From: Escherichia phage JEP4
Reading direction: 5' to 3' (one strand)
DNA: 39,195 nucleotides
Sequence record: MT740315.1
In this document: piece by piece, positions 1,964 through 26,722 of the stretch
Layout of the letters: every line of letters starts with the position of its first letter
Numbering within the stretch: position 1 is the stretch's first letter
Notes under the pieces: generated by a model
Told to the model about the DNA's origin: nothing
The model's database searches: none
Seen by the model: only the letters and a program-made list of their open reading frames with translations
Position numbers and translations under genes: made by a program

Positions 1964-4164
1964 TGGCTGATGATAGAAAGATGACTGACTGGCATCGCAA
2001 GGTGCTGTGCAACTTTGATAATGCCTGGTCAGCAACGCAGGATATGCGAGAGCAGATTATTGAGGCTCAACGTTTCGTCCGGGTGTCCGGCGCACAGTGG
2101 GAAGGCAGCACAAACGCTGGTTACTCATTTGATGAAGGCAGGTTTGAGCATTATCCGCGCTTTGAACTGAATAAGATTGCCCGTGAATGTGATCGCATCA
2201 TTGGCGAGTATCGACAGAATCGCATCAGCGTTAAATTCAGGCCGAAGGATGACAAGGCATCGGAAGCGTTAGCCGAAAAGATGAACGGCAAATTCCGCGC
2301 TGACTATCAGGAAACATCCGGTGGCGAAGCGTGTGATAACGCATTTGATGATGCTGTAACGGGCGGATTCGGTTGTTTCCGCATGTGTGCCGATTACGAA
2401 GATGAAATGGACCCAAGTAACGAGCAGCGACGCATCAGCCTTCTTCCTGTTTACGACCCAGCGACATGCGTTTTCTTCGATCAGGACAGCAAGCAATATG
2501 ACCGCTCTGATGCTATGTGGGCTATGGAAATGTTCTCCATGACGCCTAAAGCGTTCGAGGCTGAATACCCTGATTCCATCGCGGCAAGCCTTTCTCGTGA
2601 TGACACTGGCACTCAATATGACTGGTCAACGCCAGATGCCATCTATGTTGGTCGCTACTACGAAGTTCGCATAGAGAAGGTGAAGCTCACGGCATGGCGC
2701 AACCCTGTTAGCGGAGAAACGGCAATTTATGATGAAGAGCAAATCAAAGATATTGTCGACGAGCTGACCGATGGTGCATTCGAACTGATTGGCGAGCGAA
2801 CGGTGAAGAAGCGCCGCGTTTATTGCGGTCTTCTGTCTGGCGCTGAATGGCTGGAAGAACCGAAGCGTATTCCGGGCGAACATATTCCTCTCATCCCGGT
2901 ATATGGGCGTCGATCATTTGTTGATAATCAGGAGCGAATCGAAGGTCACGCAGCAAAAGCGATGGATGCACAGCGTCTTGAGAACCTGATGGTTTCCATG
3001 ATTGCAGATAACGCTACTCAGGCTGGCGGTGATGGCATTCCTGTAGTTGATGTTGACATGATTCCTGGTCCTCTCGCCACTCATTGGGCGGAGCGCAACA
3101 AAAAGCGCCCGGCGTTCCTGCCGATGGTCAGTCTGAAAAACAAAAACGGAGATATTACTGCGCAGGCTCAGGTCAGCAGTTATACACCTCCGACACAAAT
3201 GCCTCCTGCTCTTGCCGGGCTATTGCAGTACACCGGAACGGCTATTCAGCAAATTACAGGTGCGTCGCAGCTTGAGAATATGCCGAGCAACGTCGCTACC
3301 GATACCGTTGATAGCATCTTTAACCGGATGGACACGCAGTCCTATATCTACATGGACAACATGGCTAAATCCATGCGCCGCGCTGGCGTCGTGTGGCTTT
3401 CTATGGCGCGTGAAGTCTATGGCAGCGATACGCCAATGCGCATCGTTAATGAGGACGGCAGCGATGACGTGGCGCTGATGACTGGTGAAGTGGTTGACCG
3501 TCAGACAGGGCAGGTTATCGCGCTTAACGACCTTTCGCAGGGTAACTATGAAGTGACTGTCGATGTCGGTCAGTCGTTCGCTACTCGCCGTGATGCAACG
3601 GTTAAGTCGTTACTTTCCATGCTGGCACTTATCCCACCAGGAACGCCGAAGCACGACCTTGTATCGTCGATGATTCTCGACAATATGGACGGCGAAGGGA
3701 TGGACGACCTGAAAGAATACAACCGCAATCAGTTGCTTCTGTCTGGAGTTATCAAGCCGAGAACGCCTGAAGAACAGCAGATGGTTGAACAGGCGAAACA
3801 ACAACAGGCCAGTCAGCCAGATCCGGCTATGGTTGCAGCGCAAGGTCAGCTTCTTGCTGGTCAGGCTGAATTGCAGAAAGCGCAGAACGAACAGGCAGCC
3901 ATTCAGGTTAAAGCATTCCAGGCACAGACTGATGCTCAGGTTGCAGCGGCAAATGTTGTGAAAATCCTCGCATCTGCCGATAGCCAGCAGAAATCTGATA
4001 TCCGCGAGGCTCTGAAACTGCTCGGACAGTTCCAGCAACAGCAAGGAGATAATGCCCGTGCTGATGCAGAGCTTGTCCTGAAAAGTCAGGCACAGGGCCA
4101 TGCGCAGCGCATGGACATCAGCAGCATCCTGCAAAAATCAACTCAGCAACAACCACAGCAGTAA
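1960..4164 (+). CDS. Portal protein (P22 gp1-like)
   Basis: About 735 aa; C-terminal Q/A-rich helical barrel region (PEEQQMVEQAKQQQASQPDPAMVAAQGQLLAGQAELQKAQNEQ) as in P22 portal; ATGA overlap with TerL stop; ORF-track start 1948 is probably an upstream extension. Confidence 0.9.
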   Translation: MMADDRKMTDWHRKVLCNFDNAWSATQDMREQIIEAQRFVRVSGAQWEGSTNAGYSFDEGRFEHYPRFELNKIARECDRIIGEYRQNRISVKFRPKDDKASEALAEKMNGKFRADYQETSGGEACDNAFDDAVTGGFGCFRMCADYEDEMDPSNEQRRISLLPVYDPATCVFFDQDSKQYDRSDAMWAMEMFSMTPKAFEAEYPDSIAASLSRDDTGTQYDWSTPDAIYVGRYYEVRIEKVKLTAWRNPVSGETAIYDEEQIKDIVDELTDGAFELIGERTVKKRRVYCGLLSGAEWLEEPKRIPGEHIPLIPVYGRRSFVDNQERIEGHAAKAMDAQRLENLMVSMIADNATQAGGDGIPVVDVDMIPGPLATHWAERNKKRPAFLPMVSLKNKNGDITAQAQVSSYTPPTQMPPALAGLLQYTGTAIQQITGASQLENMPSNVATDTVDSIFNRMDTQSYIYMDNMAKSMRRAGVVWLSMAREVYGSDTPMRIVNEDGSDDVALMTGEVVDRQTGQVIALNDLSQGNYEVTVDVGQSFATRRDATVKSLLSMLALIPPGTPKHDLVSSMILDNMDGEGMDDLKEYNRNQLLLSGVIKPRTPEEQQMVEQAKQQQASQPDPAMVAAQGQLLAGQAELQKAQNEQAAIQVKAFQAQTDAQVAAANVVKILASADSQQKSDIREALKLLGQFQQQQGDNARADAELVLKSQAQGHAQRMDISSILQKSTQQQPQQ

Positions 4165-4254
4165 TTAACCCATAACGTGCAATGGCTGTCTTTATGAGGC
4201 CTGGCACCCTATTGCCTTCCGATGGGCTGAACATCGAGTAAACAGGGGTAACAA

Positions 4255-5148
4255 ATGGACCAGATGGCAGAAAACACACCAGAAGTTGAAATCGAAACCG
4301 ACGCGTCAGAGCAGATTCCTGATGATGTCGAACTGGCTGAAGAAGTCGAAACAGAAGATGGCAGTGAGTCCTCTGGCAATGATGCAGAGGAAGCTACTGA
4401 AACTGATGACGACGAATCAGAACAGGAATTCTACTTTGGTGACGAAAAGCTGGATTCGCCAACCAGCGAAGATAGCGCAGAGCATGGACTGGTAAAACAC
4501 CTGCGCAAGACGATTAAAGAGAAAGACCGCGAGCTGAAAGAGCTGATGCGTCAGTCTCAGAAACCCGTCGAGCAGCAGCCGGTAATCACTCAACCACCGC
4601 GAATGCCAAAACTGGATGATGAGGACATCGGTTTCGATGAAGAAATCTATCAGCAACGCATGGCTAAGTGGGCAGAGGATAACGGAAAGTACCAGCAACA
4701 GGAGATGGCTCGCAAGCAGAAGGAGCAGGAGCTTCAGGCTACCTATCAAGAGCGATTATCCAAATATCAGCAACGTGTTAAGGCTCTCAAGGTTCCTGGC
4801 TATCAGGAAGCAGAACAGGCCGTACTCGAGGAAATCCCCATCGAGACACAAAACGCGATCCTGTTTGAGTCAGAGAAGCCGGAAATCGTTGTTCTGGCGC
4901 TCGGTCGCAACGCTGAACTGCGCAAGCAACTGGCAGAAGCTACCAACCCCGTAGCAATTGGTCGTCTGCTGGAACGTATCGAATCGAAGGCCAGAATCAT
5001 GCCAAAAGCAAAAACCACGGCAGCCACAACCCCGACAGTTAAGGGGAGCAACGGCGCAGTAATCAACAACCTCGACAAATTGAAAGCCAAGGCGCTGGAA
5101 ACTGGTGACTGGACGCCGTATTTCGCCGCTAAAAAGGCAAAAAAATAA
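4255..5148 (+). CDS. Scaffolding protein (P22 gp8-like)
   Basis: 297 aa, highly acidic N-terminus, coiled-coil-like charged repeats, located between portal and coat. Confidence 0.7.
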   Translation: MDQMAENTPEVEIETDASEQIPDDVELAEEVETEDGSESSGNDAEEATETDDDESEQEFYFGDEKLDSPTSEDSAEHGLVKHLRKTIKEKDRELKELMRQSQKPVEQQPVITQPPRMPKLDDEDIGFDEEIYQQRMAKWAEDNGKYQQQEMARKQKEQELQATYQERLSKYQQRVKALKVPGYQEAEQAVLEEIPIETQNAILFESEKPEIVVLALGRNAELRKQLAEATNPVAIGRLLERIESKARIMPKAKTTAATTPTVKGSNGAVINNLDKLKAKALETGDWTPYFAAKKAKK

Positions 5149-5166
5149 CCTATCGGAGCATTAAGC

Positions 5167-6420
5167 ATGGCTAACCAATTAGCAAAAGACCTTGAAATCA
5201 TGTTCGAAAACTACGTTGAAGGCTTTGAGGCCGCCTGCGTAGTTTCCCGTAACGCTAAAAAATTCCGTCCCGGTGATACAGCAATGCAGCGAGCAGGTGA
5301 TGTTCTGTATCGTCCGCAGCATTACCACATGAACATTGAGGAAGGCCTAGACCTCAGCGGCAAAACGCCAACAGCACTGGTTCAGCGCCTTGTTCCTTCT
5401 GTGTTCAAGGAGCCGAAAAACATTCTGTACACTCTGGATGCGCGTGAAATGCGTGACCCGGAACATAAAACTGAAGCTGGTCGCGCCGCAGGTATGCGCC
5501 TTGCTGCACAGATTGACTCTGACCTGATTTCCATGGTCACGCAGCGTGCTACTAACGTGATCACAATGGCTGACTCAACCACTGGTTCACAGGGCCGTGA
5601 TTTGTGGAACTGTGCGGCAGGTATTGATGCCACCATGACGTCGATTGGTGTACCACAGGGTATCAACCGCCGCTCTTTCTGGAACCCCTTCAACTACAAA
5701 GACCTTGCTGGCGAGCTTGGCCACCGTGCCTATGCTCAGGGCGCAACCCTGACAGCATACGAAAAAGCGCAGATCCCTCCGGTTGCGTCCTTCGATAGCT
5801 ACAAGACGGATATTTCTGGTCGTGTTCCGAAGGGTACAGCAACTTCCCTGACGCTGGCGGCTGAACCTGCGCACAAGGTTGAAGCGAAAGATGCCAACGA
5901 TATGCCAGTGGATAACCGACAGGGGACTATTACGGTATCTGCATCTGGGTTGCAGGTTGGCGATGCGTTCACCATTGCTGGCGTGAATTCTGTACACCAG
6001 ATCACCAAAGACACCACCGGGCAGCCGCAGGTATTCCGCGTTCTGGCAGTAAGCGGAACGACAGTAACTATCTCCCCGAAAATTCTGCCGCCTGACAACT
6101 CGGATGTCGCCAGCCGTCCATATGCAAACGTTGATGCTAATGCGGCAAGTAGCGCAGCAATCACCATTCTCAACAAAAATGCCGCACCGGCTAACCTGTT
6201 CTGGGCTGATGGTTCTGTTGAACTGATGTACGGCAAACTGGCGTTCCCAACTGGTCAGGGTCCACAGGTAATGACAGCAACCACCGAGCAGGGCGCTACG
6301 CTGATCATGTCTTACGCCTTCGACCACATCAAAGGCGTAACCACTGCTCGTTTCACCACTCTGTACGGTTGCTCTGTACTTGTTCCTGAATATACGGGCA
6401 TCGTTATTGCCGGGCAGTAA
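5167..6420 (+). CDS. Major capsid (coat) protein
   Basis: 417 aa ORF immediately after scaffold, followed by a strong terminator; size and position of P22-family coat; differs from my recollection of P22 gp5 itself. Confidence 0.85.
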   Translation: MANQLAKDLEIMFENYVEGFEAACVVSRNAKKFRPGDTAMQRAGDVLYRPQHYHMNIEEGLDLSGKTPTALVQRLVPSVFKEPKNILYTLDAREMRDPEHKTEAGRAAGMRLAAQIDSDLISMVTQRATNVITMADSTTGSQGRDLWNCAAGIDATMTSIGVPQGINRRSFWNPFNYKDLAGELGHRAYAQGATLTAYEKAQIPPVASFDSYKTDISGRVPKGTATSLTLAAEPAHKVEAKDANDMPVDNRQGTITVSASGLQVGDAFTIAGVNSVHQITKDTTGQPQVFRVLAVSGTTVTISPKILPPDNSDVASRPYANVDANAASSAAITILNKNAAPANLFWADGSVELMYGKLAFPTGQGPQVMTATTEQGATLIMSYAFDHIKGVTTARFTTLYGCSVLVPEYTGIVIAGQ

Positions 6421-9930: not shown

Positions 9931-10626
9931 ATGTTATATGCATTTAAGCTGGGCAGAAAACTGCGCGGCGAGGAACCTTATTGCCCTGAAAAAGGCGGGA
10001 AAGGTGGCAGTTCTGATAAAAGCGCAAAGTATGCCGCAGAAGCCCAGAAGTATGCCGCAGACCTGCAAAATCAGCAGTTCAACACCATCATGAACAACCT
10101 GAAGCCGTTTACTCCTCTGGCTGATAAGTATGTCGGCAGCCTCGAAAACTTATCGTCTCTGGAAGGGCAAGGTCAGGCACTTAACCAGTATTACAACTCT
10201 CAGCAGTACAAAGATCTTGCTGGTCAGGCTCGCTATCAGAGTCTGGCGGCAGCGGAAGCAACAGGTGGATTGGGTTCCACTGCAACCGGTAATCAGTTAG
10301 CAACAATCGCACCAACGCTTGGTCAGCAATGGCTATCTGGTCAGATGAACAACTACCAGAATCTGGCAAATATTGGTCTTGGCGCTCTTCAGGGGCAGGC
10401 AAACGCCGGGCAAACATATGCCAACAACATGAGCCAGATTTCACAGCAAAGCGCGGCACTGGCGGCGGCAAACGCTAATAGACCTTCCGGCCTTCAATCT
10501 GCAATAGGCGGGGCTGCCTCTGGAGCAATTGCTGGAGCACAGCTTGGCAGCATTGTTCCCGGTATTGGTACTGGTATTGGTGCCGCTGTTGGCGGCGGTC
10601 TTGGTCTTCTTGGTTCACTGTTTTAA
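9931..10626 (+). CDS. Ejection (internal virion) protein, gp7-like
   Basis: 231 aa; Gly/Ala-rich hydrophobic C-terminus; synteny with P22 gp7 (229 aa). Confidence 0.6.
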   Translation: MLYAFKLGRKLRGEEPYCPEKGGKGGSSDKSAKYAAEAQKYAADLQNQQFNTIMNNLKPFTPLADKYVGSLENLSSLEGQGQALNQYYNSQQYKDLAGQARYQSLAAAEATGGLGSTATGNQLATIAPTLGQQWLSGQMNNYQNLANIGLGALQGQANAGQTYANNMSQISQQSAALAAANANRPSGLQSAIGGAASGAIAGAQLGSIVPGIGTGIGAAVGGGLGLLGSLF

Positions 10627-10636
10627 GGGTTAATCA

Positions 10637-12001
10637 ATGGCTACGTGGCAACAGGGTATTAATTCTGGTGGTTTTCTGGCTGGCATTGGTGCGCAAAATG
10701 AGAATGCACCAAAAGCAAGCGACATTAACGCAACGCTTGGTCTGATCCGCGAAAACAATGAATTGGCTCGCTCAGGTGCAAATAACGTTGGTCTGACCGC
10801 GTTACGTGGTCTGGCTGGAGTTGCTGATATTTATAAGCAGGAACAGCAACAGAAAGCGATTAATGCGTTCAATAAGGTTCACGCTGATGCATGGGCTTCT
10901 GGTGATCCATCGGGACTATTTAAGTTTGCCAAGGAAAATCCAGCGTTTGTTGCGCAGGCACAACAGGCGTTTTCCGGTCTTAATGAGCAGCAACGCAACG
11001 ATATGGGCGATTTAGCCATGAGGGCTAACGTCGCTCTTTCTCAGGGACCAGAAGCCTACAGTAAATTCATTACTGATAACAAGGACAGGTTAAATCGCGT
11101 GGGGGCGAATGCTGACTGGATGATTCAGACAGGTATTCAGAATCCAGAGCAGCTATCACACATGCTGACTACTATGTCTCTCGGTGCACTTGGGCCAGAA
11201 AAGGCGTTTGCTGTTCAGGACAAGATAGCTGGTCGTGAGATTGACCGAGGCAGACTGGCAGAGACAATCCGCAGCAATAAGGCTGGAGAGGCGCTAACAG
11301 CACGCGGTCAGAATATCACGATGCGCGGTCAGGATTTATCGATGCAGAGAGCATCAATGAAAGGGTCGGTTGGGAATAATGAGCGTACAGTTCAGTTAGC
11401 AGATGGCAGAACTGTAACGGTAGGCGGGAAGCTTCACGGCGCTGGGGCTAATGCGTTCTACGAAGGTATCGACAACGAGGGGAATATGGTTCGCGTTCCT
11501 GCTGGCTCTATTGCCGCTCCGGCTACATCGGCAGCAAGCGCGCAGAATTACGCAATGAAGAAAGATCTTGATGCAATTTCTGGTGCATCAATTGACGATC
11601 TTGGCTTCATGACTGGCATTACAGGCTCTTCAGGTTCTCCTGCTCTTGGTGCAGATATTCGTAGCCGTGCATCTGGTGGTGATCAGAGGAAACTATACAA
11701 CGCTGCACAGCGAATCCAAGGAAAGATGCAGAATCAGGGCATTGCAGCAGCCAGAGACATGGGGGCATCCGGTATCAACACCGTTGCAGAAGCAAAGATG
11801 TATTTTCAAGGTATGCCACAGGTTGATTTCTCAAGCCCTGAAGCACTGCAACAATCAATGCGCGACATTCAGCAATATACCGACAATTACAACCAACAAT
11901 ATAACGTTAATGTTGGTAAATCTCAGCGGCAGCAATCTCAACCTACACAGGTATCACAGCCAGCAGCCGGCAGTAACTTTTCTTCACTATGGGGTGATTA
12001 A
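10637..12001 (+). CDS. Ejection protein, gp20-like
   Basis: 454 aa; synteny. Confidence 0.6.
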
Positions 12002-13866
12002 TGGCTAAAGCATGGAAAGATGTTATCGCCTCTCCACAGTATCAGGCGTTAACTGAAGAACAGAAAGCACAGGCTCAAGCGCAATATTTTGATGAGGTTG
12101 TTGCCCCTAAGGCTGGTGACAAATGGGCTGAAGCAAGAGATCAGTTTTATGCAGCATACCCTCCACCTCAGCAGCAGAAAGAAGAACCATCATTGATGCA
12201 ACAAGCTGGCGATTGGCTCACTGGTGGTCAAAGTGCAGGGCAAATTGCAGAGCAGGCTGGTCGCGGTCTGGTAAACATACCATTTGACGTATTGCAGGGT
12301 GGCGCAAGTCTGATTAATGCAATCAGTCAGGGGCTTGGTGGGCCAAAAGTATTGGATGATGTTTATCGTCCAGTAGACAGACCGACAGACCCCTACGCGC
12401 AAGCTGGAGAAACAATTGGCGGGTATTTAGTTCCAGGAGTTGGAACGGCAGGAAGCATGGCTATTGGATCACTGGCAGAGGCCGCAAACCAGAAAGGTGA
12501 TTTCGCGCAAAATGCAGCCATAAATGCCGGAGTTAACCTTGCCGCTCAGGGGGTTCTTTCCGCAGCAGCAAAGGGAATAGGGCGTGGAATTACTGCTGTT
12601 CGTGGCGAAATATCACCAGCAGATCAGCAATTGCTCAAGCGTGCCGCTGCGGCAGATGTACCAGTTATGACATCGGATGTAGTTCCTCCAAAAACAAAAC
12701 TTGGCAATCAACTGCAGGGTTACTCAGAAGGAGTCATAGCTGGGACTGGACCAATGAGAGCCGCACAGCAGGATGCTAGAACCAAGCTTGTTAATCGCTT
12801 CACCGAAAAATACGGCGACTACGATCCATCTGTAGTCGTTGATAGTCTAAAGTCAGGCGTTGCAAGGGAAAAATCGTTAGCCAAGTCAAAACTAAACAAC
12901 CTGTCAGGAAGAATGGTTGGAAAGCCAGTTGATACAAGTGGCGCCATAAGAGCTATCGACGGAGCAGTAAACGAACTTGGGAAACTTAAAGGTGTTTCTG
13001 ACACCCAGACCATTTCTGCGCTTAATGATTATAAGAATGCCATTCAGGAGATAACAAATGGAGATGATGCCTTTGAGTTACTTGATAAGCTGAGAACTCA
13101 GTTCCGCATTGACGTAAAAGGCGATCGTACAGTTCTGCCATCAATGTCGCAAACAATGGTCGACAGGGTCTACAACTCGCTAACCAATAGCCTTAGTAAA
13201 TCTATAGCGAAAGGACTTAGCCCAAAAGATGCTTCAGCATGGAGAGCGGGAAAAGCTGATTATGCAAAAATGGCAACACATGCAACTCAAACGCGCCTTA
13301 AAAACGTTCTAAATAAAGGAGATTTAACTCCCGAGGCTGTAAATACCATTGTGTATGGACAATATGGGTCAGATATAGCTCGATTGTACGGGAAACTCGA
13401 TCAAAAAGGTAAAGACATGCTAAGGGCGGCATATATCAGCAAAATAGCTGACAAGGTAGGTGACAGCCCTCAGAAAATGATGACCGAGCTTGGCAAGCTG
13501 CAAAAACAAGCAAATGGTCAGGTGTTTAAAACTGTATTTGGTGGGAAGAACGGAAAAGAGATAGAGGGGATGTTATCTATTCTCGATGCTACCAAAAGAG
13601 CATCTGAGGCTAATGTTGTGACGAAGACTGGCATGACACTCGCGCCTTTGGTAAGGGTTATTGGTAACCTAAAAACCGGAGGCGCGCTATTGGCTGGGGA
13701 AACAGGGATTGGCCTTATGTCGAGGGTTTATGAAAGCCCTATGGCCAGGAATGCGCTCTTACGTCTGGCAAACACCAAAGCAGGAACGCCAGCCTATGAA
13801 AGAGCATTAAGTAACGCTGCAAATGCCATCAGACCGCTGCTTGCCACTGAGGCAACACAGCAGTGA
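12001..13866 (+). CDS. Ejection protein, gp16-like
   Basis: 621 aa; synteny; last gene of the virion block before the accessory island. Confidence 0.6.
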   Translation: MAKAWKDVIASPQYQALTEEQKAQAQAQYFDEVVAPKAGDKWAEARDQFYAAYPPPQQQKEEPSLMQQAGDWLTGGQSAGQIAEQAGRGLVNIPFDVLQGGASLINAISQGLGGPKVLDDVYRPVDRPTDPYAQAGETIGGYLVPGVGTAGSMAIGSLAEAANQKGDFAQNAAINAGVNLAAQGVLSAAAKGIGRGITAVRGEISPADQQLLKRAAAADVPVMTSDVVPPKTKLGNQLQGYSEGVIAGTGPMRAAQQDARTKLVNRFTEKYGDYDPSVVVDSLKSGVAREKSLAKSKLNNLSGRMVGKPVDTSGAIRAIDGAVNELGKLKGVSDTQTISALNDYKNAIQEITNGDDAFELLDKLRTQFRIDVKGDRTVLPSMSQTMVDRVYNSLTNSLSKSIAKGLSPKDASAWRAGKADYAKMATHATQTRLKNVLNKGDLTPEAVNTIVYGQYGSDIARLYGKLDQKGKDMLRAAYISKIADKVGDSPQKMMTELGKLQKQANGQVFKTVFGGKNGKEIEGMLSILDATKRASEANVVTKTGMTLAPLVRVIGNLKTGGALLAGETGIGLMSRVYESPMARNALLRLANTKAGTPAYERALSNAANAIRPLLATEATQQ

Positions 13867-13883
13867 CTAAATGCCATGGATGG

Positions 13884-14072
13884 TTATTTCCTTAGCACAT
13901 GAAACAATGTTTGCTTTAATTCCACCCATACAATTATGACCACTATAGACAGACAAAAGAAACTGAATGCATTGGCATCACGATCGAAACCTTCTCCGGC
14001 ACTAAATCCGTAAAAGGTCATAAAAAATATAAAAATTGCGCACTTTGCAACGTTTACAAATTTTTTCTTCAC
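13884..14072 (-). CDS. Small predicted 2-TM membrane protein (62 aa), GTG start
   Basis: GTG start preceded by AAGGAGGT Shine-Dalgarno at 5-nt spacing; two hydrophobic segments (VAKCAIFIFFMTFYGF and FSFFCLSIVVIIVWV); co-oriented downstream of the CI-like gene. Confidence 0.55.
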   Translation of the reverse strand: MKKKFVNVAKCAIFIFFMTFYGFSAGEGFDRDANAFSFFCLSIVVIIVWVELKQTLFHVLRK

Positions 14073-14132
14073 ACCAACCTCCTTAGTTTTGAGCAGGATA
14101 CCAGATGATAATGTGTCGCCTCCTAAAGGATA

Positions 14133-14774
14133 TCAAAGCAACGGGATTTCAAGGTAAACTGCGGTTGCCAAAATACTAACATCTTCATTTCTAACAAGAA
14201 TATTAGGATACATTGGGTTTAGGGATACTAGGTTTGTCTCTATTTCACCAATGTAAACCTGTTTGAAGCTCAATATTTGCTCTTTATCCAATGATGCTAT
14301 TACATAATCTTTGCTTTTAGCTTTTACTAGAGGGCTGAACGTGACAACCGATCCTCTGGGAAAGCTAATACCTGAACTTGTAGTCATAGCTTCACCTTCA
14401 ATAGTCAATGCAAATGCAGAGTCACCAACATTGTATATTGCAGGATGAAATCTAGACGATGAATGTTCACCTGTGTTTAGGTAATGCATAACTTCATCTA
14501 GTTTGAGAATTGGTATTTGCTTTACCAGAACGTCAGGCATGACGTTTTTTGTTCCCGGACCCTGACCTTCACCTAGAGCTAACCACTCAGCCGTAGTACC
14601 TAATGCGTTGGCTAATGCCTGCAATACCCGAAGCCGTGGTTTAGCCTCACCACCCTCGTATGCAGCTATTTGACGTTGAACAACACCAGCTAATTTTGAC
14701 AACTGCGCCTGCGTCATACCCCTGGACTGTCTTGCCAGAGATACTCTTGATGGGAATTGATCGTCAAAATTCAT
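14133..14774 (-). CDS. CI/LexA-like repressor: HTH_XRE N-domain plus degenerate S24 peptidase-like C-domain
   Basis: N-terminal HTH (GMTQAQLSKLAGVVQRQIAAYEGG); C-domain aligns to the c2 S24 domain in this window but has GEAM where c2 has GDSM, with Lys retained (SFKQ vs TFKK). Confidence 0.8.
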   Translation of the reverse strand: MNFDDQFPSRVSLARQSRGMTQAQLSKLAGVVQRQIAAYEGGEAKPRLRVLQALANALGTTAEWLALGEGQGPGTKNVMPDVLVKQIPILKLDEVMHYLNTGEHSSSRFHPAIYNVGDSAFALTIEGEAMTTSSGISFPRGSVVTFSPLVKAKSKDYVIASLDKEQILSFKQVYIGEIETNLVSLNPMYPNILVRNEDVSILATAVYLEIPLL

Positions 14775-14873: not shown

Positions 14874-15047
14874 ATGACTGAAAAGATATCTTCCATCAAG
14901 CCGCGTCAGGTTCGTTTTACAGAAAAGGTTGATTCACATATCCGCGAATCAGCAAAAAGATGCCATAGGTCAATTCAGGCAGAGATAGCTTATCGAATGG
15001 AGTTATTAATGAAACTTGAGGCAAAGGGCGATGTTGTCATCCAATAA
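14874..15047 (+). CDS. Arc-like ribbon-helix-helix repressor (57 aa; below ORF-track cutoff)
   Basis: Read directly: MTEKISSIKPRQVRFTEKVDSHIRESAKRCHRSIQAEIAYRMELLMKLEAKGDVVIQ; AGGAG SD 6 nt upstream of ATG; beta-strand plus two helices pattern of Arc/Mnt RHH family; first gene of operon. Confidence 0.6.
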   Translation: MTEKISSIKPRQVRFTEKVDSHIRESAKRCHRSIQAEIAYRMELLMKLEAKGDVVIQ

Positions 15048-15120
15048 AAATAGTGAAGCCCGGCAGTGCGCGAACACAAACCGGGCCTCTATGTCAGTAA
15101 CCGTACTCAAGGAAACTAAC

Positions 15121-15759
15121 ATGAATATTGTAGCAAAATCAGATTATAACTTCCAAGGATTCACTTTTAACCCTGTAACAGAGGGCGGGTCTATCTGGTT
15201 TACCTCCACCGAACTAGCTAAGGCTCTCGGCTATAAAAAAACTGATGCCATCAGCCAAATTTATGCCCGTAATGCTGACGAATTTTCCGACTCAATGTCA
15301 TTGACCCTCAATATGAAGGTCAACGGAATAAACAATAGCTTACGTAACAAATCGGTCAGAGTTTACTCACTCCGAGGCGCTCACTTGGTGGCGATGTTTG
15401 CTTCTACGCCCAAGGCCAAAGAGTTCCGCCGCTGGGTGCTGGATATTTTGGATCGGCAGGCAGAATGCTCACCGATTGCAAAACAGTTCACTGACGAAGA
15501 GCTGGTTAATCTCTGCTACTTACAATTGTGGATGGAGAAGAGTCAACAAATGTGCAAACACATCTACCCAGGAATGAAGCAAATTGGTTCTGAGCTTTCA
15601 GGAAGGATTTACGATATTGCATATGAGACTCGCTACATGTCAGAAGAAACCAAGAAATCACTTCTTCGTGAAATGAAGAATCTTGATACCAACAATTTTG
15701 TCGTAAAGAACGCTCAGCCAATGCTGGCAAAACTTCGCGGCGAGGAATGGATTCATTGA
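15121..15759 (+). CDS. Antirepressor-family protein with Bro-N domain
   Basis: Begins MNIVAKSDYNFQGFTFNPVTEGGSIWFTSTELAKALGY (Bro-N-type); AAGGA SD; ORF-track start 15016 is an upstream extension overlapping the Arc-like gene. Confidence 0.75.
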   Translation: MNIVAKSDYNFQGFTFNPVTEGGSIWFTSTELAKALGYKKTDAISQIYARNADEFSDSMSLTLNMKVNGINNSLRNKSVRVYSLRGAHLVAMFASTPKAKEFRRWVLDILDRQAECSPIAKQFTDEELVNLCYLQLWMEKSQQMCKHIYPGMKQIGSELSGRIYDIAYETRYMSEETKKSLLREMKNLDTNNFVVKNAQPMLAKLRGEEWIH

Positions 15760-15846
15760 TTGGTGCGCCGGACTGCGCAAAAGAAAACCGCCAGTGTGCT
15801 GCTGGCGGCCTATGTCACACCCTTACTACCACATAAGGAATGCCTA

Positions 15847-16572
15847 ATGACTTTTAAGAATGTAGCAAACATCGGATCCGTTGTCACGGATAAAACCATT
15901 GACAGCCAAAGTCTTCTGATGATGGTTAATGAAGCTCGCAAGTTATGTGGAGAGCCATCAGTACGTAACAACAAATTCATCGAGAAAATTGAGGATGAAT
16001 TGGAAGGCGAGACCTACACAAAAAGTGTAGGTCGGAAAAACGGGGCTGACATTGATGTTATCTCCATGACTATCAAGCAGGCGCTTCGTGTTGCTGCTCG
16101 CGAATCTAAAGCAGTTCGCCGAACACTTGTAGACAAACTTGAAAGTATGCAGGAAGCGCACATTAAAAGCGGTAAATCAGCGAGTGGACTTGTTGAGTAT
16201 CGTCAAGCGCGAACATTGAAAATGACGGTTGAAGCTGTTACCAATCTGTTCGATCTGATGCCAAATCTTGCGCCGGAGGCAAAGCAGACAGCGGCAGCAA
16301 GTATAATCAACCCGCTCGTTGGTTTTAATGCAATACCTCTTCCGGCAATAGAAGAGCATTACTACTCAGCAGGGGAGGTTGCAGAGCAGCTTGGAGTAAC
16401 GGCCAACAAGATTGGTCGCATTGCTAACGCAAACAACCTCAAAACTGAGCAGTACGGGAAGTTCTTCCTGGATAAATCTGCGCATTCCAGCAAACAGGTG
16501 GAAGCGTTCCGCTACAATGAGGAAGGTGTTAAAGCACTACAACACCTTATTCATGGGAGTAATGTTGCATAA
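15847..16572 (+). CDS. Second antirepressor-like protein (Rha/ANT-like)
   Basis: 241 aa from ATG 15847 with AAGGAA SD; N-terminus resembles the Rha-type N-domain of the 33188 gene; domain call from recalled patterns only. Confidence 0.55.
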   Translation: MTFKNVANIGSVVTDKTIDSQSLLMMVNEARKLCGEPSVRNNKFIEKIEDELEGETYTKSVGRKNGADIDVISMTIKQALRVAARESKAVRRTLVDKLESMQEAHIKSGKSASGLVEYRQARTLKMTVEAVTNLFDLMPNLAPEAKQTAAASIINPLVGFNAIPLPAIEEHYYSAGEVAEQLGVTANKIGRIANANNLKTEQYGKFFLDKSAHSSKQVEAFRYNEEGVKALQHLIHGSNVA

Positions 16573-17065: not shown

Positions 17066-17481
17066 CAATGCCTCACCAAATGGGTGGAATGGCATCGTAA
17101 AACCTACTGTACAAATCAACAATCGTACCGTTTCGGTATGTAACAAATGCTCACCGTAGCCATGCTGCGGCGATTCCTTGTATCTGGAGCAAATTAAATG
17201 ACAGATATTATAAATAGGAATTGTTATTTAATAATGTTTGAAAATAAAAATCATGGACGATAGGAATAAAGGTATTACTTGTTTTTATTTTTGTAAGTGA
17301 CGCATTAAGCGCATAAATAATATGCCTGTTGATCAAGATTCTTGAGTATTGTAAAATAATCGTTTTGTTCATGTTGCATGGTTTTTAAATGAATAGAAGG
17401 TTATTTTTCAAAACAATTGCATCTTTGTCTGCAGTCATTCCGTTTTCTTCAATATCTAAATCTTCAAACAGGATGACTAAT

Positions 17482-19539
17482 ATGCCTGATATAACCCCAA
17501 ATGTTGTAATTGGGATGCCATCGCAACTCTTCACAATGGCTAGCTCTTTTAAAACCGTAGCAAATGGAAAAATTTATATCGGTAAGATTGACACAGATCC
17601 GGTAAATCCAGAAAACCAGATTCCAGTATATCTGGAACGAGAAGATGGTACTTATGTTCAGGTGCCACAGCCAATCGTTATCAATGCTGCTGGATACCCG
17701 GTATACAACGGACAGATTTCCAAATTCGTTACCGTGCAAGGCCATTCTATGGCTGTTTACGATGCATATGGTACGCAGCAGTTCTATTTTCCGAATGTGC
17801 TGAAATACGACCCGGATCAGTTAAGACAAGAGTTAGCAACAGAGGGTAATGAAATACTTGTTGACGACTCCCGTATTGCAGTTAAAAGTGTTCATGTAAA
17901 TTCAAAACTTAGAACACAGCACAATAAAAACGCAGAAATAATCACGCCAAATGATTTTATATCAAATTATGACATGATATCTGCAGCTATTAACTCTGGA
18001 GAGAGTGCCGCAGTATTTAATTCCAGGTATGCATTCACAATAACAGTTGGGGAATATGGTAATTTTAAATCTATTAGTGATGCTCTAAACTCAGCTGTTG
18101 CACTGCGTCCACTATGGAAAAATGGCATTGATTTTTGCATAATTAAAATTCTTTCCGGTTTTGTGCTCAATGAGCAAATAGAAATTTCAGCAGGATGTGA
18201 CTTATCATGGATTAAAATAATATCAGAAGACTCAGTGGTTTTCTCTGATACCAGTTTGTTTACTAAAACTGTTAGGACGTATTACGAATACAAATATTTA
18301 TTTTACATTTGCGATGCAGCAAAAAGTCCTGTATTTGCTATTCAGATTGAAGAAAATAGAGATGATAGCGATGTTTGTGCATTTATTGTAACTCAAAAAG
18401 CTGAACTTAATTTCTATCCGTATTCAGGTGCTCGAAAGTTCTACGTTGGAATTCATGGTAGTTTTGGTGCAAAAATTAGTGCATATCATACCGGATGTGC
18501 TCCTGATGAGGAAAGTGTTGCTGCATATATGCCAGAAGGGTATTACGTATGTGATTTTTCTTATAGCAGATACTCTTCCCTGCAACTGGTAAATAATGTC
18601 AAGGCATCAATGCCTGTAAGCAAGTTTGAACGGTGCACAGAGAGTACGGTTGCGTCAGTTAATTGTATTTATAATGTTAAAGCAGATTTTCAGGGGTCAA
18701 GTGCAAGCTATTGTTATATAGGATGGAATGTAAGAGATGGTTCAAATGTTAATATACGCGACCATAAAACTATACATTGCTCATATCGTGGATTAACCTG
18801 CATTCATACAGCATATGTTGATGCAAGACGACATGACGTTGAAGAAAGTGATGCAGAAACAAGTGGTAAAGTCCTTGAACCAAATATTGAAAAAGGTTTT
18901 TATGGATGTGCACTTGGTGTGCGTATTGATGGTGCGGGTTGTGTTGATGTTGCTGGTAATGATATGCGCAATTGTGGAACAGCCGTTAATGCAGACACTG
19001 GTGCTGTTATTTCAGGAAAAGCTGTAGATATCTCAGGGGCTGAGTTGGGATTTGATTGCCATGCAGGAGCATCTGTTAATTTTCCAAGGCTATGGGGTAC
19101 AGATATAAAAAAATTAATGCACCTCCAAGATGGTGTAAGGTTTAACTCTAATATTTGTCATGTATTTGGTGCAAATCCCACAAAAGATATTAGATGGATT
19201 GATGTAGAGAGATCTGAAGCTTCTTTTATGAATGCAACGCTGGATGCAGATTCAGGATTTATTGCTGACTGTGGTAGTAGGATAACCATTGAAGGAAGTA
19301 AAGTTAAAAACCAAACAATAAGAAGTTTTTTTGGATCACATGTGGCTATAAATAATACTGTTGCTGACAGAACTTATTCAGATATAGCCGATGTTCCGCA
19401 GTTGACTATTAGTGGAGGATCTTTTATTTCTGCTACAGGATATTCTAATTCTGACTCCAGCCCTCTTAGGTTGAGCACAACACGAAATACACTTGGAGTT
19501 GGAGGAGCCATATTTTCAACCAATGGGGAAGTTTCATGA
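17482..19539 (+). CDS. Tailspike protein: P22-family head-binding N-domain plus divergent receptor-binding domain
   Basis: N-terminus MPDITPNVVIGMPSQLFTMASSFKTVANGKIYIGKIDTDPVNPENQIPVY matches the P22 gp9 head-binding domain pattern; remainder is AT-rich and unrelated to my recollection of P22 gp9; ORF-track start 17389 is an extension. Confidence 0.85.
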   Translation: MPDITPNVVIGMPSQLFTMASSFKTVANGKIYIGKIDTDPVNPENQIPVYLEREDGTYVQVPQPIVINAAGYPVYNGQISKFVTVQGHSMAVYDAYGTQQFYFPNVLKYDPDQLRQELATEGNEILVDDSRIAVKSVHVNSKLRTQHNKNAEIITPNDFISNYDMISAAINSGESAAVFNSRYAFTITVGEYGNFKSISDALNSAVALRPLWKNGIDFCIIKILSGFVLNEQIEISAGCDLSWIKIISEDSVVFSDTSLFTKTVRTYYEYKYLFYICDAAKSPVFAIQIEENRDDSDVCAFIVTQKAELNFYPYSGARKFYVGIHGSFGAKISAYHTGCAPDEESVAAYMPEGYYVCDFSYSRYSSLQLVNNVKASMPVSKFERCTESTVASVNCIYNVKADFQGSSASYCYIGWNVRDGSNVNIRDHKTIHCSYRGLTCIHTAYVDARRHDVEESDAETSGKVLEPNIEKGFYGCALGVRIDGAGCVDVAGNDMRNCGTAVNADTGAVISGKAVDISGAELGFDCHAGASVNFPRLWGTDIKKLMHLQDGVRFNSNICHVFGANPTKDIRWIDVERSEASFMNATLDADSGFIADCGSRITIEGSKVKNQTIRSFFGSHVAINNTVADRTYSDIADVPQLTISGGSFISATGYSNSDSSPLRLSTTRNTLGVGGAIFSTNGEVS

Positions 19540-26529: not shown

Positions 26530-26662
26530 TTTTGGGAACTCCTGGCTGATTAAGTACGTCGATGAGTCGTTTCCATCCGTCACGTAATTTACGGGTGATT
26601 CGTTCAAGTAAAGATTCGGAAGGGCAGCCAGCAACAGGCCACCCTGCAATGGCATATTGCAT
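26522..26662 (-). CDS. cIII: CIII-like protease inhibitor (46 aa)
   Basis: MQYAIAGWPVAGCPSESLLERITRKLRDGWKRLIDVLNQPGVPKNG matches lambda CIII; ORF-track 26722 start is an extension. Confidence 0.75.
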   Translation of the reverse strand: MQYAIAGWPVAGCPSESLLERITRKLRDGWKRLIDVLNQPGVPKNG

Positions 26663-26722
26663 GGTGTGCTCCTTATTTATACATAACGAAAACGCCTCGA
26701 GTGAAGCGTTATTGGTATGCAT

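Follow-up and report, generated by a model that had tools for sequence, protein, structure and literature searches.

A 62-residue predicted membrane hairpin in the sieA slot of P22-like prophages is a candidate superinfection-exclusion protein

SieA of P22 (type A) and SieA of HS1 (type B) are superinfection-exclusion proteins of the inner membrane, 162–212 amino acids long, with three or four transmembrane helices and the cytoplasmic motif FxRYPxEAxxFNK (Leavitt et al. 2024, PMC10883804). The same study reports that SieA is indifferent to the type of ejection protein, a breadth that its authors cannot explain, and shows that P22 is excluded by HS1 sieA carried on DNA that includes the 106 bp upstream of it (PMC10883804). 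The region that holds the gene, named the ‘ant moron’, has been described as being in rapid flux, and among the occupants of this slot SieA alone has a known function (PMC2629481). The hallmark of SieA is that DNA injection is blocked and no K+ efflux occurs, with the plating efficiency lowered roughly 1e7-fold or more. T4 Imm is another phage membrane protein that acts at the DNA-entry step; it is small, of a size class similar to that of the protein studied here, and has two hydrophobic segments, but it comes from a virulent phage and is made early in infection.

Here we describe a 62-codon open reading frame (ORF) in a 39,195-nucleotide stretch of DNA (the window) that occupies the position of sieA. 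We are highly confident of three points taken together: that the ORF is a real gene, that its product forms a membrane hairpin and that the gene is a cassette of the sieA slot with a shared leader. Judged from its sequence, the protein belongs to neither the SieA nor the Imm family; we regard it as a variant of this kind of element that has no homology to them. Comparison of the locus with related prophages, and of its leader with those of other occupants of the slot, points to a possible role in superinfection exclusion.

Organization of the locus

By its neighbouring genes, the ORF belongs to an E. coli prophage of the P22-like (Lederbergvirus) type. The ejection-protein genes 7, 20 and 16 (9931–13866, plus strand) end with the gene 16 homologue (12001..13866), an ejection or DNA-transfer protein gene labelled ‘DNA transfer protein / P22-gp16 family’ in matching records. 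The 62-aa ORF (13884..14072, minus strand; 62 codons followed by a TAA stop) is convergent with gene 16, and the two stop codons lie 17 nt apart. Upstream of the ORF is a gene for a 213-aa CI-like repressor (14133..14774, minus strand) with Pfam matches to HTH_3 and Peptidase_S24, and beyond it come a rightward operon on the plus strand, comprising a 57-aa ribbon-helix-helix-like gene and two antirepressor genes, an Arc/Mnt gene on the minus strand and the tailspike gene (17389–19539). The antirepressor-type genes stand in tandem at 15016–15759 (Bro-N and P22_AR_C) and 15760–16572 (phrog_1726) on the plus strand, with a 73-aa gene after them; as PGAP calls a product of 212 aa, the true start of the first probably lies downstream of the TTG at 15016. 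The non-coding DNA at 17100–17400, just upstream of the tailspike gene, has a GC content of 26–32%. The 62-aa ORF itself has a GC content of 36%, against 42–52% in gene 16; low GC is usual for accessory inserts.

The minus strand runs into the start of the ORF as ...TGGTATCCTGCTCAAAACTAAGGAGGTTGGT GTG AAG AAA AAA TTT..., and the predicted product is MKKKFVNVAKCAIFIFFMTFYGFSAGEGFDRDANAFSFFCLSIVVIIVWVELKQTLFHVLRK. The GTG start codon (14072–14070) is preceded by the ribosome site AAGGAGGT (14084–14077, minus strand) and a 4-nt spacer, TGGT. An earlier note on this DNA had placed the GTG 5 nt past the ribosome site; it lies 4 nt after AAGGAGGT and 5 nt after AAGGAGG, a trivial difference. The site occurs once in the 39-kb window, where 0.79 occurrences are expected by chance, and by itself it therefore proves nothing. 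It is non-random because the start position, the site and the 62-codon length are all conserved in E. coli, Salmonella and Serratia. The predicted structure of the leader RNA does not exceed that of shuffled sequences (z=+1.0), so the ribosome site should be accessible. The proposal that the ORF is a genuine small-membrane-protein gene with a strong, unstructured translation start is thus borne out by family conservation and the open leader RNA.

A conserved and mostly unannotated family

On the conservation seen across its homologues, the ORF is a real gene that has mostly gone unannotated. Its product matches phrog_21338, a family of unknown function, over its full length (E=5.3e-45; residues 1–62 against positions 1–62 of the 62-position profile). 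Homologues of exactly 62 aa occur in Salmonella and Serratia (77–81% identity), Pluralibacter (69%) and Pectobacterium (58%). All the copies that we read as DNA, from E. coli, Salmonella and Serratia, encode 62 aa; they show no indels and dN/dS values of 0.15–0.42 (Nei–Gojobori), and the position of the start codon is constant across copies, with ATG in Serratia and GTG in the others. An alignment of 14 family members, 31–81% identical to the window protein, contains four invariant residues (K10, F14, M18 and W49) and four near-invariant ones (G22, S37, E51 and K53). When 1.84 billion representative proteins were searched exhaustively with the profile of the family (HMMER), just 12 clusters matched, and all of these are either proteins close to it in size or versions of the ORF that had been called too long.

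Of 5,426 complete E. coli genomes, 89 (about 1.6%) carry the gene at 95% identity or above, and most of these 89 have no PGAP annotation for it. Among 50,697 phage records searched with tblastn, it occurs in phiv205-1 and UPF_BP1 only and is annotated in neither. The 62-aa protein has no match beyond noise in Pfam (E<=0.01), NCBIfam or PADLOC, and none in a sequence-profile search of the PDB; a Pfam scan of all 14 members at E<=5 matched no family, Imm_superinfect and the holins included. The searchable literature, queried with the protein accession and terms for the slot, holds no description of the 62-aa family or of the shared leader.

Two of the copies, in E. coli E100341 and E. coli AST19, lie in degraded prophages that are 100% identical to this part of the window. 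In one, gene 20 is interrupted by an IS3 element; in the other, the head genes are gone. Both retain intact copies of the small ORF, its neighbour gene 16, the ant moron and the tailspike gene.

Predicted topology of the protein

A Kyte–Doolittle profile places hydrophobic segments at about residues 11–25 and 35–50, separated by a short acidic loop of nine residues (GEGFDRDAN), and an AlphaFold2 model built from a shallow alignment of seven sequences has helices at about residues 5–24 and 32–61 with a mean pLDDT of 69. Both agree with the two hydrophobic helices that had been proposed for this protein. The distribution of charge is the same in all 14 members of the family, with a net charge of +1 to +4 in the N-terminal tail, −1 to −2 in the loop and +1 to +3 in the C-terminal tail. 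By the positive-inside rule, this pattern predicts that both ends are cytoplasmic and the loop periplasmic, and the protein is predicted to reside in the inner membrane. The first hydrophobic segment, with only around 13–15 strongly hydrophobic residues, may be a cleaved signal peptide; the conserved residues within it speak for its retention in the mature protein. A Foldseek search of viral structures with the AlphaFold2 model gave generic two-helix matches only, with E values above 2, which carry little weight because a helical hairpin is an uninformative fold.

Gene 16 is the constant neighbour

Family loci were sampled from E. coli, Salmonella, Serratia and metagenomes. Gene 16 is convergent with the small gene at 31 of the 32 loci analysed in sequence and, among the matches listed, at 10 of 11 IMG/VR sites, and the two stop codons range from a 4-nt overlap to 45 nt apart. 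Gene 16 is the one constant neighbour of the family. Small proteins that are 90–92% identical adjoin gp16 proteins only 22–31% identical, and gp16 proteins that are 82% identical adjoin small proteins 44% identical; since the two sets of identities do not track each other, we rejected co-evolution with gp16.

The upstream neighbours vary widely. In Serratia a Rap1a-like gene can take this place, and in Salmonella a 161-aa lipoprotein gene; elsewhere it is held by the 213-aa CI-like gene, a 286-aa gene with HTH and S24 domains, Arc or Mnt, or a 149-aa hypothetical gene, or else the small gene faces divergent P63C or Panacea genes or borders directly on the tailspike gene. In three loci (L023–L025) the small gene stands alone, facing divergent genes, and in the five most distant relatives (L028–L032) it is the sole gene between gene 16 and the tailspike gene, so that it must be expressible alone. 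In the five Salmonella loci L015–L019, the lipoprotein gene (4483–4968, plus strand; phrog_6067, function unknown) lies directly upstream of the 62-aa gene and encodes MKKSLLIIPLLLAGC. We rejected this 161-aa neighbour as a SieA, for it is a lipoprotein with an LAGC lipobox (LLAGC); it is another envelope candidate for exclusion. In the five Serratia loci L010–L014, a gene of 115–118 aa with a Pfam match to Rap1a, a family of type VI secretion immunity proteins, lies at about 4644–4999 (plus strand), 1–9 nt upstream of the 62-aa gene, with which it apparently forms one operon behind mnt.

The earlier note described the ORF as co-directional with, and immediately downstream of, a degenerate CI-like gene. 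Both parts of this description hold: the two genes are on the minus strand, 60 nt apart, and the catalytic serine of the CI-like protein is replaced by alanine (EGNSM in lambda CI, EGEAM here). Because of this replacement, the protein is probably not cleavable in a RecA-dependent manner; the lysine of the S24 domain is retained. Divergent from the antirepressor operon, the CI-like protein may replace Mnt as the repressor of that operon. The functional tie to the repressor that the note had also suggested was not borne out, given the range of upstream neighbours and the several prophages in which the small gene is the sole leftward gene. The 62-aa gene is an interchangeable cassette with its own leader, and the association is therefore incidental; the CI-like gene is a possible source of read-through transcription into the ORF, not a conserved partner.

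The one apparent exception to the adjacency with gene 16 is L009, where the small gene is found within a siphovirus-type tail cluster of a Salmonella prophage. There, a 2,756-bp block (3046–5801) of a P22-like ant moron sits between siphovirus tail genes. Besides the 62-aa and CI-like genes, this block, which is 99.5% identical to L004, carries the remnant of an antirepressor gene and 612 bp from the 3′ end of gene 16. We rejected this locus as proof of autonomous mobility, as the small gene arrived within a transplanted 2.76-kb block that includes those 612 bp.

A leader shared among exchangeable cassettes

Immediately before the GTG lies a 33-nt leader block, GGTATCCTGCTCAAAACTAAGGAGGTTGGT (14073..14105, minus strand), which includes the ribosome site. 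The P22 leader before sieA, CATGGTATCCTGCACAAAACTAAGGAGGTTGGTGTG, has the same block, ribosome site and GTG as the 62-aa ORF; gene 14 of epsilon34, which is hkcB-like, has an identical block, and HS1 sieA has a diverged copy. Upstream of the block, about ten unrelated sequence contexts occur among the IMG/VR matches listed, and conservation ends one base before it, at a T (14106). With this T, the shared element starts as TGGTATCCT and agrees with the extended −10 sequence TGnTATAAT at its key positions; in the window, the block with its preceding T gives an extended −10-like element, TGnTATCCT. A second, sigma-70-like candidate, TTGATA-17-CATTAT (14108..14136, minus strand), has 9 of 12 consensus matches and overlaps the stop codon of the CI-like gene. 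The same element stands upstream of HS1 sieA, and the P22 record annotates a putative PsieA 31–61 nt upstream of the sieA start, the place to which the candidate in the window corresponds. Either element may serve as a promoter; both are weak matches to the consensus, and the number of consensus promoter sites in the region is not above that expected from shuffled sequences.

We found no terminator downstream of the 62-aa ORF, where the gap to the stop codon of gene 16 is 17 nt. The sole candidate is a 13-bp hairpin in the leftward RNA just past the ORF stop, at about 13826–13858 and thus within the terminal part of gene 16; it lacks a U tract, and its fold is not significant against shuffles (z=−0.9). 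Rfam has no family in the region of the ORF; its only match in the window is the lambda cIII thermoregulator element at 26617–26675 (minus strand; 88.5 bits, E=2e-20). The features of a moron found here are presence or absence among related phages and low GC, with promoter candidates that are consensus matches only and no terminator.

The earlier note had assigned the ORF to the ‘sieA/hkcC’ position. The first half of that label is well founded, as P22 sieA is likewise the first leftward gene, convergent with gene 16 (a gap of 22 nt), and shares slot, leader and GTG with the ORF. The second half adds nothing: hkcC is not annotated in the P22 record, and the 62-aa protein has no similarity to P22 orf59a. 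The equivalence with sieA is closest in the HS1 prophage of E. coli HS, in which a CI-like protein identical to that of the window (WP_001008290.1) is followed, in the exact place of the ORF, by a 212-aa sieA of type B. WP_001008290.1 occurs in many E. coli prophages besides HS1, and the cassette genes that follow it there encode five different products: the 62-aa protein, SieA type B, a 75-aa multi-helix protein, a 109-aa hkcB-like protein and a 129-aa secreted protein.

Scanning IMG/VR contigs with GGTATCCTGCNCAAAACTAAGGAGGTTGGTGTG gave at least 121 sites on at least 120 contigs, at which at least 12 unrelated product families follow the leader. The most frequent are hkcB-like proteins of 107–109 aa (at least 28 sites) and the 129-aa secreted protein (at least 25), followed by the 62-aa family itself (at least 11), the 75-aa multi-helix protein and SieA type A (at least 10 each), a 109-aa protein with a membrane anchor and a coiled coil (at least 9), a 149-aa membrane-anchored protein and a 140-aa soluble protein (at least 6 each), a 116-aa protein with three or four helices (at least 5), a 99-aa protein with a signal peptide and a membrane-anchored protein of 103–106 aa (at least 4 each), and a 68-aa protein with a signal peptide (at least 3). 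Among the matches listed, all 12 families are convergent with an ORF of 600–740 codons, and 11 of them start with a signal or a membrane-spanning segment at the N terminus. Judged by these juxtapositions, the leader site looks like a cassette-exchange site for at least 12 families.

The 62-aa gene is exchangeable with two proven types of sieA. Searches by tblastn with SieA type A and type B queries found no homologue of either in 30 family loci, which fits functional replacement but could equally reflect simple allelism at one site. That the gene has the slot and the leader of sieA shows that the two are regulated alike and can be exchanged, but not that their products act alike.

Comparison with known systems

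The likeness to SieA extends over several features. The 62-aa gene occupies the same slot, as first leftward gene convergent with gene 16 and between genes 16 and 9; it has the leader, ribosome site and GTG of P22 sieA; its product is predicted to be embedded in the membrane; and it does not track the type of gp16, which matches the reported breadth of SieA. The protein differs from SieA in being far smaller, in having two helices and, as read directly in its sequence, in lacking the motif FxRYPxEAxxFNK. BLASTP gave no alignment with HS1 SieA, hhalign comparisons of the family with P22 and HS1 SieA gave probabilities below 1% for both, and a profile comparison with P22 orf59a found no relationship. 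From T4 Imm it differs in being prophage-borne, and no member of the family has an Imm_superinfect match.

The remaining cassettes of the slot have the same genetic arrangement: epsilon34 gene 14 and the HK620 hkcB-like gene, together with at least nine further uncharacterized families, have an identical leader and GTG and are convergent with gene 16. These other occupants are unrelated in sequence and size (62–164 aa). Class II holins, pinholins and type I membrane toxins are also small proteins with one or two transmembrane helices. The 62-aa gene differs from holin genes in lying between the ejection and tailspike genes, outside the lysis cassette, and its product has no holin match in Pfam; it differs from type I toxins in having two helices rather than one, with no sequestered ribosome site and no antisense-RNA family in Rfam.

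Possible functions of the protein

Our favoured reading, which we advance tentatively and at somewhat less than an even chance, is that the 62-aa protein is a superinfection-exclusion protein, expressed from the prophage, that acts on the delivery of P22-like DNA at the inner membrane. For this gene we infer prophage expression, a promoter, an inner-membrane location and an exclusion function. The gene would be an independently expressed accessory (‘moron’) gene of P22-like prophages, driven by the short leader, ribosome site and GTG that it has in common with P22 sieA, and the lysogen would contain a low, constant level of its product. This product would be a 62-residue hairpin in the inner membrane, with both ends in the cytoplasm, two helices crossing the membrane and the nine-residue acidic loop in the periplasm. 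The hairpin would prevent incoming P22-like phages from completing the gp20/gp16 conduit for DNA delivery, either by binding the conduit or by masking a host partner in the inner membrane, so that superinfecting DNA would never enter the cell. The protein would then be a functional analogue of SieA or T4 Imm. What points this way is the genomic context: a gene for a conserved hairpin, running counter to the late operon, bears the expression signals of sieA, trades places with it, keeps to the gene 16 boundary of P22-like prophages in the loci analysed and is indifferent to the type of gp16. Against this reading, among the matches listed, one of the cassette families behind the leader is soluble and most are uncharacterized.

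Bacterial small membrane proteins commonly modulate larger membrane proteins, and the 62-aa protein might instead be a lysogenic-conversion factor that alters host physiology by acting on a transporter, a sensor kinase or an envelope-stress component in the inner membrane. Such a role would suit a small membrane protein of two helices whose conserved residues lie at the membrane boundary; the slot otherwise holds a variety of envelope proteins that are not known to act against phages, and the Rap1a-like and lipoprotein neighbours in other prophages point to general envelope functions. We nevertheless consider this unlikely: the gene adjoins gene 16 of P22-like prophages at every locus analysed in sequence apart from the transplanted copy in L009, and the sole characterized occupant of the slot is an exclusion protein (PMC10883804).

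The size and two-helix architecture of the protein resemble those of class II holins and small membrane toxins, and it could accordingly be imagined as a toxic, abortive-infection effector, a holin-like or type-I-toxin-like hairpin that depolarizes the membrane on infection and kills the cell before the superinfecting phage matures. Transcripts of the late operon that ran on past gene 16 would be antisense to the 62-aa mRNA, because the stops are 17 nt apart and no terminator was found, and could provide a regulatory switch. We regard this role as improbable. The strong ribosome site and unstructured leader are unlike the sequestered starts of type I toxins, Rfam finds no antisense-RNA family in the region, none of the 14 family members has a holin match in Pfam and the gene is far from the lysis genes. 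It is also intact in the 89 complete E. coli genomes, prophage remnants included, and this persistence argues against constitutive toxicity.

A role in the lytic cycle, either shielding the induced cell from re-infection by progeny or tuning transcription from gene 16 into the tailspike gene, would suit a gene that lies antisense within the late operon, between genes 16 and 9; P22 sieA is reportedly up-regulated on induction (PMC10883804), and the ant moron reportedly influences expression of the tailspike (PMC2629481). Purifying selection acts, however, on the amino-acid sequence and not on the mere presence of the DNA, and many P22-like phages do without the gene (two sequenced phages carry it), so that it must be dispensable for growth; we find such a role decidedly improbable. 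That the ORF is a non-functional chance frame in a recombination-prone spacer is close to refuted, for although gene callers usually skip it (neither phage record nor most PGAP genomes annotate it) and a 62-codon ORF with a single AAGGAGGT is not improbable by chance, its frame and length are kept across 31–81% identity and several genera, with dN/dS below 0.45, invariant residues and a conserved start site.

The preferred reading, exclusion at the inner membrane, can be carried further. The 33-nt leader TGGTATCCTGCNCAAAACTAAGGAGGTTGGTGTG might be a dedicated, portable expression and recombination site through which P22-like prophages of enterobacteria swap a dozen or more unrelated envelope proteins, making the slot a compact exclusion hotspot in which the 62-residue hairpin would be the smallest SieA-independent blocker of the gp20/gp16 conduit; we put this forward as a doubtful extension. 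If the 62-residue protein excludes phages, it would be a much simpler probe than SieA of how the DNA of short-tailed phages passes through the inner membrane and how this passage is blocked, and so a minimal tool for studying DNA entry by podoviruses. It would also represent a new, non-homologous exclusion family, present in about 1.6% of complete E. coli genomes and largely missing from their annotation. The shared leader serves as a one-line search pattern that retrieves a set of candidate envelope and exclusion genes of prophages.
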